DNA of 35,368 nucleotides, taken from the IMG/VR virus record IMGVR_UViG_2740892269_000014, one strand, 5' to 3'. A program made the translations under genes and the position numbers. Source of the stretch: a virus (Duplodnaviria > Heunggongvirae > Uroviricota > Caudoviricetes). Shown here in pieces: positions 1 to 2,658 of this stretch; the stretch's first letter is position 1; the number at the start of each line of letters is the position of its first letter. Below the pieces are notes generated by a model. The model did no database searches and was not told the origin of the DNA. It worked only from the letters and a program-made list of their open reading frames with translations.

Positions 1-573
1 ATGTTTTGCGAAGAAAAAGTAGCTCAAATGGCTGCATACCTACTTCTTAAGCGAGGTGGGCGCATGGCATATCTGAAATTGATGAAGCTGCTCTATCTGT
101 CTAACCGCAAGTCGATTTTGAAGCATGGCAGGATGATCGGCGAAGATAGCCTTTACTCTATGAAATTTGGTCCAGTCATGTCGAATACGCTGAACTTGAT
201 TCGTGGTAAGGCTGAAGGCATTGGTGACTACTGGTACAACTTGATAGAGACGAACGGGCATGATGTGTTGTTGCGTTCAGATCCGAGGGAAATGGATGCA
301 GACGAGGTCTTTGATGAGTTGAGCCGTGCAGATATCCGGATTTTAGATGAAATCTATTCTCTGTATGGGCATATGAACCGATTTGATCTCGCAAACATGA
401 CGCATTTAGAAAGCGTTTGTCCAGAGTGGCACAATCCTGGCAATTCTCGTAAGCCTATAGACCTGAAAGAAATGCTGATCAGTGAGGGTAAAAGCGAGGA
501 TGAGGCTAATCGTATAATTGGCAAAATGGAAGAATCTCAGAAACTTAAGGAATTTTCTTTGCAATTATCATGA
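1..573 (+). CDS. Panacea-domain (DUF4065) protein, putative PanA/SocA-like antitoxin; may be 5'-truncated by the window edge
   Basis: 190-aa ORF with the motif YLKLMKLLYLSNR...MKFGPV, matching the KLxKLLYY...GPV signature of Panacea/DUF4065 as I remember it; its stop overlaps the next ATG (ATGA at 570-573). Confidence 0.5.
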   Translation: MFCEEKVAQMAAYLLLKRGGRMAYLKLMKLLYLSNRKSILKHGRMIGEDSLYSMKFGPVMSNTLNLIRGKAEGIGDYWYNLIETNGHDVLLRSDPREMDADEVFDELSRADIRILDEIYSLYGHMNRFDLANMTHLESVCPEWHNPGNSRKPIDLKEMLISEGKSEDEANRIIGKMEESQKLKEFSLQLS

Positions 574-989
574 CGGATTATCAGCCATACAGGAAAGGAA
601 CTGTGCTTGCCCCAACTGGGCCATGCAATCATCTTCATGTGATTTGTAATGATCCTGTTTATTACCCCGTTAACGATTGTTATTGTGTTTTAGTTGTTAA
701 TATTTCTAGTATCAAGGATGGTGTCCCCCACGATCCGTCTTGCGTCTTGAATTCTGGTGATCATCGCTTTATCAAGCATCCAAGTTATGTTGTTTACGCT
801 GAAGCTATAATTTGGCGAGTGGATAACATGGTTAGAAAGCAGCGATCGGGTGAGATTTCTGTTCATGATGATATGCCAGAAGCTACATTCAATAGAATTC
901 TGGACGGTTTTGATATATCTGATGAAGTTACGCCAAAGAACCTTAAATTTAAAAATAAATATTGCGTATCATCTATTGATGATGAGTAA
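570..989 (+). CDS. hypothetical Cys/His-rich protein, candidate toxin partner of the upstream Panacea gene
   Basis: 139-aa ORF translationally coupled to the upstream gene by a 4-nt overlap; AT-rich; no family recognised. Confidence 0.4.
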   Translation: MTDYQPYRKGTVLAPTGPCNHLHVICNDPVYYPVNDCYCVLVVNISSIKDGVPHDPSCVLNSGDHRFIKHPSYVVYAEAIIWRVDNMVRKQRSGEISVHDDMPEATFNRILDGFDISDEVTPKNLKFKNKYCVSSIDDE

Positions 990-1028
990 ACAACAGGAAT
1001 TTTTTCGGTATAGCTTCTGGAGTTTTCT

Positions 1029-1202
1029 ATGAAAGATCAAAAAGCAACCAAGCCACAGGTTAAGTTCGACACAATGAAAGCATTCGCAGGTATGGGGGCT
1101 GCTGTTGAAGTTCTGATGAAGGCTGTTCCTAATGCGTTCACTCACGCTACTGTCTCTGGTAAAGAGCAGCAGGGTAAGCTTCGTCGTCGCAAAGCAGCAT
1201 GA
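1029..1202 (+). CDS. small hypothetical protein (57 aa)
   Basis: ATG at 1029 preceded by GGAG (1017-1020); stop TGA at 1200-1202; hydrophobic core with a basic tail (KLRRRKAA); followed directly by a terminator. Below the size cutoff of the ORF track. Confidence 0.3.
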   Translation: MKDQKATKPQVKFDTMKAFAGMGAAVEVLMKAVPNAFTHATVSGKEQQGKLRRRKAA

Positions 1203-1221
1203 TCATAGCTGGTGCTTTTTG

Positions 1222-1248
1222 AAAACCCGCCTTCAGGCGGGTTTTTTC
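1222..1248. terminator. bidirectional intrinsic terminator between convergent genes
   Basis: aaacccgcc-ttca-ggcgggttt hairpin with an A-tract upstream and T-tract downstream. Confidence 0.7.
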
Positions 1249-1249
1249 T

Positions 1250-1558
1250 TTAGTGATGTTCTTTGCCCTTCTGTTTGACTGTTCTGACCTGTTCCCACTC
1301 GATACGTCCTTCTTCTCGCCTTTTGTCTATGTATTCCGCAAGATCCTGAATATTGATGCAACGTTTTGCTTTTTGTGATGTGCCGATGCGATATGTTGGA
1401 ACGGGCAACTTACAAGCGTTTGCTTTTGCTTCTGCCGTGGCTGGACTCATACCAAAGTACTTTTGGCTAATTGCTGAGAGTTCAATGTTTGGGGTATTGA
1501 ATTCAGCCATCAGTAAAAACAAGGTGTTCATAATTTTCTCCATCAAAACCGGCTGCAC
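1250..1558 (-). CDS. excisionase-like DNA-binding protein (PrtN/Xis-like family)
   Basis: Motif SQKYFGMSPATAEAKANACKLPVPTYRIGTSQKAKRCINIQDLAEYIDKRR resembles PrtN/excisionase-like proteins; last gene of the minus-strand early operon. True start may be an internal Met (about 1510). Confidence 0.5.
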   Translation of the reverse strand: MQPVLMEKIMNTLFLLMAEFNTPNIELSAISQKYFGMSPATAEAKANACKLPVPTYRIGTSQKAKRCINIQDLAEYIDKRREEGRIEWEQVRTVKQKGKEHH

Positions 1559-1567
1559 CCGGGAAAA

Positions 1568-2140
1568 TCATAATTCTGTGCTGGTGGCAGGAATTAATTT
1601 CTGCCAGATAGCGGAAACATATTTTGCCTGATGACGGGCATCAGCTATGGCGTTGTGCCGTTCGCCATCGAAAGGCATGTCCATTTTGGGGTCGAATCCG
1701 ATGGAACGCCCAAGTGTAACGATCGTGCGTACATCGTGGTCATTCCAGTACGCCCACGGGCAGATTTGTCCTGCTCGCTCATAAGCTCCACGTAAAATTA
1801 CGTTGTCGAAGGTGGCTCCGTTACCCCAGACTTTTAAATATTTCGTATTGTCTGCGTGCCGGTTAATGAAATGGTTTAGTTCTGAGAGAGCATCGCTGAT
1901 CGACAAAGTATCATCAATACAGATTGCAGCTCGCGCTTCAGGGCTTTGTTTCAACCACCACAGGATGGTATCGCCGTCAGGTGTAGCTCCTTGCTTCATA
2001 GCACTGTCTAGGCTGACAACCGCATAGAATTCTTGTCCGATGTCTCCGGTTTCTGGAGTGAAGAACACCGCGCCAATGGAAACGATCGGTGCATCCTTAT
2101 TTTTCCCCATCGTCTCAAGGTCGATCATTAAGTTGTTCAT
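1568..2140 (-). CDS. 3'-5' exonuclease, DEDD/DnaQ-like
   Basis: Start chosen at MNNLMIDLETMG (Exo I-like D-x-E motif), ATG at 2138-2140 overlapping the upstream stop (ATGA); about 190 aa. Confidence 0.6.
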   Translation of the reverse strand: MNNLMIDLETMGKNKDAPIVSIGAVFFTPETGDIGQEFYAVVSLDSAMKQGATPDGDTILWWLKQSPEARAAICIDDTLSISDALSELNHFINRHADNTKYLKVWGNGATFDNVILRGAYERAGQICPWAYWNDHDVRTIVTLGRSIGFDPKMDMPFDGERHNAIADARHQAKYVSAIWQKLIPATSTEL

Positions 2141-2658
2141 CACTTCACCTCCTGCGGCGGTTCTGGTAGAGGCATCCAATTGATTACATCGCATTTAGGG
2201 ATGCTGATATCATCACCAAGCCACCCTTGACCTTCAGACCAGCATTGCACGTAATACCCGTATTCTGTGTTCACTACGCACCACTGCGCGTCGTTCGGCA
2301 TTCGATCACTACAGCTTATCCAACTATCCGGAGTTCCCGGATAGTTGCCATTTACATCGAAGTTTGGCTCTGCGTCCTGAACCAGGAGGATGTAACCATT
2401 CTTGGCAGTATCAAGTTCTAACGCCTCGGTGACGGTGCCGAAATAGCGATTACCTAAATCAGCATCACAAGTGCTTACATCAATGGAAACCTCCATGCCT
2501 TCGATTAATTCTGGCAAGTTGTAAGTTTGGCTTACAGGTTCTGCTCCCAGCGATGCCAGTGCAATCCGTGCCAGTTCCATTTGTTCGCCACGGGTAAGCC
2601 CGTTATCAAGCGGATTTTTAATGAATAATTCGATACGTTCTTTGGTAATAGTGGTCAT
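2140..2658 (-). CDS. DUF551-like phage protein
   Basis: 172-aa ORF with C-terminal W-rich motif ending INWMPLPEPP, typical of DUF551. Confidence 0.5.
   Translation of the reverse strand: MTTITKERIELFIKNPLDNGLTRGEQMELARIALASLGAEPVSQTYNLPELIEGMEVSIDVSTCDADLGNRYFGTVTEALELDTAKNGYILLVQDAEPNFDVNGNYPGTPDSWISCSDRMPNDAQWCVVNTEYGYYVQCWSEGQGWLGDDISIPKCDVINWMPLPEPPQEVK

Follow-up and report, generated by a model that had tools for sequence, protein, structure and literature searches.

The left end of a 35,368-nucleotide stretch of viral DNA (Caudoviricetes; IMG/VR virus record IMGVR_UViG_2740892269_000014), which as a whole is referred to here as the window, carries two genes, panA (open reading frame 1, ORF1) and panT (ORF2), that very probably form a PanAT type II toxin-antitoxin module (window positions 1-989) in which a MazF-fold toxin, PanT, arrests growth and its antitoxin, PanA, neutralizes it through a direct complex. 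The domain identity of PanA, the fold of PanT, the homology of both to a validated pair from Pseudomonas moraviensis, the strict pairing of the two genes, and their nature as a cassette are established here. Coordinates are collected in Table 1.

An earlier note on this DNA had proposed that ORF1 encodes a Panacea (DUF4065) protein and had suggested a profile search as a check. That search bears the proposal out: ORF1 matches PF13274 (SocA_Panacea; gathering cut-off 25.7 bits) with a score of 67.9 bits and an E-value of 1.8e-18, and the match covers PanA residues 27-137 and positions 1-109 of the 113 in the model. An identical 190-residue protein is present in RefSeq (WP_000458583.1, 'Panacea domain-containing'), and the Escherichia coli genomes that encode it are 99.9% identical to window positions 1-1300. 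The note had also raised the question of whether ORF1 is complete. It is: the RefSeq protein has the same length, and PanA homologs from 30 other loci share the N-terminus MFxExKxAQMAAYLL, so the edge of the window does not truncate ORF1. In an alignment with these 30 loci, the PanA motif (K26, K29, L30 and Y32, together with G57, P58 and V59) is invariant or nearly so. Beyond the PF13274 match, PanA contains the motif THxxCPEWxDPxGSSxPI (residues 134-153; window positions 400-459), which is followed by a variable, charged C-terminal tail. Residues T134, H135, E142, W143, P146, S149 and I153 are conserved at a level of at least 90% in PanAs paired with toxins of the T6 type described below, and we propose this motif as a candidate toxin-binding element. 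PanA is a stand-alone Panacea protein: its only other Pfam match is a sub-threshold one to Fe-hydrogenase, and the Pfam scan gave no DNA-binding domain. Against the SocA equivalog (NCBIfam NF047745), ORF1 scores 13.5 bits (E = 0.043), where the cut-off is 190 bits. A search of the PADLOC-DB 2.0 defense models gave no match at E-values up to 1 for ORF1, for ORF2, or for ORF3, the small reading frame downstream of panT.

The partner gene had been described as having no recognizable family, and at the level of sequence this description stands. Pfam, NCBIfam and PADLOC returned nothing significant for ORF2, and Pfam gave no significant match in 96 diverse members of the PanT family. ORF2 does match phrog_19071, a PHROGs family of unknown function. 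In a word-indexed search across 5.8 billion proteins, ORF2 had 62 relatives, all of them unnamed and without Pfam domains; when 1.84 billion cluster representatives were searched with a hidden Markov model, 2,703 reached E<=1e-3 (929 at E<=1e-10), indicating that the PanT family is large. The first eleven residues of PanT, MTxYxPYRKGT, are conserved among its homologs, and the ATG at position 570 is therefore the true panT start rather than the GTG at position 603 that is used in RefSeq and that yields 128 residues in E. coli, as opposed to 139 from ATG570. Pseudomonas RefSeq entries for PanT have 108 residues as opposed to 132, and in Pseudomonas phage Sirocco panT is uncalled (L036:1486-1884; L numbers are our labels for compared loci) and a 44-residue ORF is annotated on the opposite strand. 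The description of ORF2 as Cys/His-rich is accurate for the protein itself, which has six Cys and six His residues, but does not extend to the wider family, which keeps only H21, C58 and H65. Zinc binding as a family feature was considered and rejected: C26 and H23 are unconserved outside the enteric subgroup, making a structural zinc site unlikely, and C58 is the sole conserved Cys.

Structure prediction and remote-homology searching, both of which the earlier note had recommended for ORF2, found a MazF/PemK fold and no link to MazF by sequence. The AlphaFold2 model of PanT, calculated from a 54-sequence alignment, has a predicted local distance difference test score of 90.1 and a predicted template modeling (TM) score of 0.84. 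When this model was compared with the PDB using Foldseek, the top 50 matches were all MazF, with target-normalized TM scores of up to 0.63, and the best matches in BFVD were annotated 'PemK-like protein' and 'Endoribonuclease'. PanT has an SH3-like barrel of the MazF/Kid/CcdB type, as MazF/PemK toxins do. By sequence, ORF2 gave no match to PF02452 (PemK_toxin) at E-values up to 1, and phmmer and hmmsearch comparisons with PDB sequences gave chance matches only. Conservation was counted over 96 diverse representatives, and the family signature consists of H21 (96/96), S/T47 (94/96), D55 (94/96), C58 (93/96), G63 (90/96), H65 (95/96), F67 (92/96), S72 (96/96 as Ser or Thr), Y76 (94/96), G113 (93/96) and S117 (89/96); L22 is kept in 93/96. 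Judged by strand order in the model, H21 at the start of strand 2 would sit where E. coli MazF has Arg29, and S/T47 at the end of strand 3 would sit where MazF has Thr52. Candidate catalytic residues of PanT are H21, S/T47, D55 and H65.

PanT can be tied to a family with a validated member. Kurata et al. (2022; PNAS 119:e2102212119; PMC8832971) surveyed the gene neighborhoods of Panacea proteins. Cluster T6 of their Dataset S1 carries the HHpred label 'EndoA/PemK/MazF-family RNAses', has the antitoxin gene before the toxin gene with overlaps of -4 or -1, and includes members from Proteus, Pluralibacter, Pantoea septica LMG 5345, Photorhabdus, Yersiniaceae 2016Iso4, Halomonas and P. moraviensis BS3668 (PMC8832971). 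The P. moraviensis PanT is toxic and specifically inhibits 35S-methionine incorporation; PanA neutralizes it and co-purifies with tagged PanT in a stable PanA:PanT complex, and the authors concluded that PanA neutralizes by binding directly to its toxin, in the manner of type II systems (PMC8832971). Three independent lines of sequence evidence place ORF2 in this cluster. BLASTP aligns 120 residues of ORF2 at 43% identity (E = 6e-34) with SDU72800.1, a P. moraviensis BS3668 protein that was found in the 90% cluster of a Pseudomonas homolog and is encoded on a 6.09-Mb contig; its genome, size and context suggest that it is the PanT of the published study, WP_083201923.1. When one genome per species was scanned using the ORF2 alignment, the loci identified included those of two T6 genomes, Pantoea septica LMG 5345 and Chimaeribacter (Yersiniaceae) 2016-Iso4, whose Panacea ORF overlaps the PanT homolog by 4 nucleotides and 1 nucleotide, respectively, matching Dataset S1. 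The PanT homolog of phage Sirocco is 48% identical to ORF2 and has a 1-nucleotide overlap with its PanA (L036:929-1884), and this PanA begins with MIFSEQKVAQ, the ten residues that Kurata et al. restored to the P. moraviensis PanA. Membership in cluster T1 was also considered and rejected: tblastn with ORF2 finds T6 members but not the T1 member from Salmonella phage Emek. The partner of PanA, suggested earlier to be an undescribed toxin, is thus most probably a toxin but not an undescribed one, since the T6 family was predicted to be MazF-like and validated in 2022, and the prophage PanAT is, as judged from these comparisons, a new E. coli member of it.

The pairing of the two genes is equally clear. 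Relatives of ORF2 were located at 32 genome loci, 30 of which could be assessed, and in 30/30 a Panacea ORF lies directly upstream on the same strand. Together with ORF1, this makes 31 upstream ORFs, all of which match PF13274. The stop and start codons overlap by 4 nucleotides at 16 of the 30 loci and by 1 nucleotide at two, and the others have gaps of no more than about 30 nucleotides. These loci span Enterobacterales to Alphaproteobacteria, and at four places in Pseudomonas chromosomes (L041-L044) the pair forms an isolated two-gene island between yggX and a PALP-enzyme gene. Pairwise identities of PanA and PanT are correlated (Mantel r = 0.83), a value that 0 of 5000 permutations reached. 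PanA and PanT therefore constitute a conserved two-gene module. Among 5,426 complete E. coli genomes, 208 (about 4%) carry PanAT, and panT is intact in 206 of them; the pair also occurs in Yersinia phages YeP1-3, a Klebsiella phage, a 14.5-kb Vibrio Vinavirales element, and the P2-like phage Sirocco. Its position in the Vibrio element (L037:139-958) and in Sirocco, two very different elements, is at the genome end. In the window, the ATGA overlap of panA and ORF2 reported previously is confirmed, there is no Shine-Dalgarno sequence at a normal distance before ATG570, and the overlap is predicted to couple the translation of panT to that of panA.

In the mechanism that we favor, panA would encode a stand-alone Panacea antitoxin to which panT is coupled through the ATGA overlap, an arrangement that would cause the antitoxin to be synthesized before the toxin and in no smaller amount. 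Homology with the validated pair from P. moraviensis suggests that PanT, when unbound, would arrest growth through a block of protein synthesis; it would most likely be a sequence-specific endoribonuclease that cleaves mRNA, tRNA or rRNA, and PanA would neutralize it through a direct protein-protein complex rather than by promoting its proteolysis. Both the toxicity and the ribonuclease chemistry of the E. coli PanT are thus expected from its relatives, and direct neutralization is what Ernits et al. (2023; PMC10440598) report for stand-alone Panacea antitoxins. For the lysogen, the module may serve in prophage maintenance, in abortive-infection defense, or in both.

Several observations weigh against this mechanism. 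PF02452 is matched by 1/96 PanT family members, with an E-value of 0.11, and hhalign comparisons of the 96-member PanT profile with E. coli MazF, and with a five-member MazF/Kid/ChpBK/EndoA alignment, each gave a probability of <1%, so that the relation of PanT to MazF is one of fold. The canonical catalytic Arg of MazF is not evident in the PanT sequence, and the family signature differs. Moreover, the MazF fold is also that of CcdB, a gyrase poison, and the fold alone is therefore no proof of ribonuclease activity. PanT might accordingly have the MazF/CcdB fold and yet be no ribonuclease, poisoning instead another target such as DNA gyrase, as CcdB does, or a phage component. We consider this unlikely, given that metabolic labeling of the P. 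moraviensis homolog revealed a specific inhibition of protein synthesis and not of DNA synthesis, and that the top structural neighbors of PanT are all MazF/Kid endoribonucleases. The published validation rate is a further point of caution: 9/25 PanA-linked candidates picked for testing were validated, and Dataset S1 lists an E. coli prophage candidate from a different cluster, T1, as not toxic (PMC8832971). These figures would fit an alternative in which the module is conserved but the E. coli ORF2 is non-toxic by itself, either as a non-toxic partner or as an effector active only during infection, so that the pair would not be a classical toxin-antitoxin system. The hypothesis of Ernits et al. 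that the Panacea domain is a sensor rather than a simple neutralizer (PMC10440598) points in the same direction. Nevertheless, ORF2 is 43% identical to a validated toxin and keeps all family-invariant residues, the antitoxin-then-toxin order with its coupling overlap is strictly conserved, and nearly all of the E. coli copies are intact, which together make a non-toxic ORF2 quite improbable.

An alternative to direct inhibition would be that ORF1 acts like SocA of type VI systems, as a proteolytic adaptor that brings the toxin to ClpXP. PF13274 is named after SocA, and ORF1 has the faint NCBIfam SocA_antitoxin match noted above; its 13.5 bits, however, are far under the 190-bit equivalog cut-off, the P. 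moraviensis pair forms a stable complex and was concluded to act by direct binding (PMC8832971), and the partner of ORF1 is a MazF-fold protein rather than a SocB-like DnaN inhibitor. We give an adaptor role almost no credence. Returning to PanAT as a toxin-antitoxin module with a MazF-fold toxin, a more extended version of this proposal can be put forward tentatively, although we doubt that all of its parts will hold together. In it, the T6 PanT would use the MazF fold for a catalysis of its own kind, with the invariant His21, Ser/Thr47, Asp55 and His65 replacing the canonical Arg/Thr pair and perhaps with an unmapped RNA target; the prophage module would be an abortive-infection or superinfection-exclusion system in which the Panacea domain senses an invading phage and releases the toxin; and the slot next to attL in dusA-integrating lambdoid phages would be a hotspot for swappable defense cargo. 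Also weighing against the main proposal, a literature search gave no anti-phage phenotype for the PanT family, and PADLOC has no model for either protein. In the library searched, no paper was found that addresses whether this prophage copy serves prophage maintenance or an anti-phage role.

Table 1. Position of the PanAT module and of neighboring features in the window
Feature	Window position	Strand	Length	Description
panA (ORF1)	1-573	+	190 residues	ATG at window position 1; PF13274 match
panT (ORF2)	570-989	+	420 nucleotides, 139 residues	MazF/Kid/PemK fold; cluster T6 of Kurata et al.
ATGA stop/start overlap of panA and panT	570-573	+		read in the sequence
ORF3	1029-1202	+	174 nucleotides, 57 residues	phrog_2741; between panT and the terminator
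Intrinsic terminator hairpin	1221-1246			core CCCGCC-TTCA-GGCGGG; serves the + strand unit and the convergent prtN-family gene
prtN-family gene	1250-1558	-		PrtN (pyocin-activator) family, PF11112, E = 7.6e-23
Gene for Rv2179c-like 3'-5' exoribonuclease-domain protein	1568-2194	-		PF16473, E = 5e-75
Swappable cargo segment with panAT	about -195 to 1016-1019

Every element that the earlier note had described in this region was found where it had been placed. The module lies on the strand opposite to the early-left operon, as reported, and its AT-richness is real but modest, with a G+C content of 42.1% for positions 1-1250 and 38.3% for ORF2 compared with 49.3% for the whole window. The region ends in what had been called a strong bidirectional terminator. 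A terminator scan found an 11-bp hairpin with six G-C pairs followed by TCTTT on the + strand, and in this direction the description of a strong terminator is correct; in the other direction the terminator is weak because the T-tract of the - strand is short, with only four T residues past the core stem (TTTTC, then AAAAA). The hairpin directly follows the stop codon of the convergent prtN-family gene, whose product is probably an excisionase-like regulator of the phage. A search of positions 1-2000 for structured or antisense RNA using Rfam gave sub-threshold matches only, all of them centered on the terminator hairpin. Likewise, a promoter scan within the window gave no site above the expectation from shuffled sequence. 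The panA promoter region falls outside the window, and a single 9/12 sigma-70-like site about 126 nucleotides upstream of panA in a genome copy is no better than chance.

ORF3 is probably co-transcribed with panAT, but it is not part of the module. It matches phrog_2741 with an E-value of 5.6e-35, is Lys/Ala-rich with a basic C-terminus, and has its own ribosome-binding site, GGAG, located 7 nucleotides before the ATG. Among the 5,426 complete E. coli genomes, 565 carry ORF3 at 93-98% identity, with or without PanAT, as compared with the 208 that carry PanAT. ORF3 is found only in E. coli phage relatives and is absent from all non-E. coli PanAT loci. A homology breakpoint at window positions 1016-1019 lies just 5' of its ribosome-binding site. 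On the basis of its distribution and this breakpoint, a three-gene system was rejected.

The host element is a dusA-integrating lambdoid prophage of E. coli, with PanAT as cargo next to attL. The earlier note had remarked that an integrase would be expected where the module sits. The absence of an integrase gene at the left end is correct, but it is no anomaly, since int lies at the other prophage end beside dusA. The phages Lys8385Vzw and SKA5, with circular or linear genomes, have a tyrosine integrase gene on the strand opposite to panA, at a distance of about 450 bp to its left, and in SKA5 a small dusA-like fragment is annotated between the two. An alignment of the int-panA intergenic region with the junction of zur and panA in E. 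coli APEC 102026 places the start of phage homology about 265 bp before panA; in the same strain, the right end of the prophage, about 44 kb distant, holds the integrase gene and dinI, which abut dusA (L040:9319-11542). The junction alignment and the position of int beside dusA indicate that the phage integrates at the 5' end of dusA, and the left end of the window lacks an integrase gene because attP lies between int and panA. Thus attL lies outside the window, about 265 bp before its first position (L001:7735-8000), and panAT are the first genes after attL. The int gene and the prtN/xis-like gene are at opposite ends of the prophage.

O157:H7 and other strains have a different gene, encoding 177 residues, between the conserved att-proximal block and ORF3 (WP_000956557.1; L038:2781-3314), and its product has no Pfam match. 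In about 360 E. coli genomes, O157:H7 and O111:H8 among them, ORF3 and prtN are retained and the 177-residue gene takes the place of panAT. The presence of another gene in the same place indicates that the position of panAT is a swappable cargo slot.

These findings are mainly of value for annotation. The PanT family, on record since 2022, has about 2,700 representatives at 50% identity and still lacks a model in Pfam, NCBIfam and PADLOC; its entries are labeled 'hypothetical', and their start codon is systematically miscalled. The tie to the validated P. moraviensis PanT provides a usable function for a gene carried by about 4% of the complete E. coli genomes as well as by several temperate phages.

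Among known systems, P. moraviensis PanAT (PanA WP_083354365.1, PanT WP_083201923.1) is made up of the same two protein families, with toxins that are 43% identical. The two systems share an antitoxin with an N-terminus of the MFxExKVAQ type that is a stand-alone Panacea protein with no extra N-terminal domain, an antitoxin-first order with a stop/start overlap of 1-4 nucleotides, and a toxin with a MazF-like structure and no Pfam or CDD match. They differ in setting, the P. moraviensis pair being a chromosomal two-gene island classed as 'NotPhage' whereas the window copy is lambdoid prophage cargo beside attL, and in the length of the toxin, which has 132 residues in P. moraviensis and 139 in the window, where it ends in a short acidic C-terminal tail. 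The MazF/Kid (PemK)/EndoA toxins (PF02452) have no detectable sequence or profile similarity to PanT, and their antitoxins are MazE/Kis/PemI, whereas that of PanT is a Panacea protein. Unlike MazF, PanT has no evident catalytic Arg and would instead present the invariant H21 on the strand that is equivalent by order in the model; it also has an extra loop (residues 48-71) containing D55, C58 and H65, and two additional C-terminal helices. The type VI system SocAB of Caulobacter has an antitoxin with the same Pfam domain as PanA (SocA_Panacea), but PanA scores 13.5 bits against the 190 bits of the SocA equivalog and its partner is unrelated to SocB; SocAB acts via ClpXP-mediated degradation, whereas the PanAT family neutralizes by binding. 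Finally, Panacea antitoxins are also encoded in E. coli by the PanAT of STEC O31 (cluster T3) and by the PanA-T1 of MOD1_EC5558. Their partners, a membrane-depolarizing toxin for T3 and a protein marked not toxic for T1, are both unrelated to the PanT of the window.

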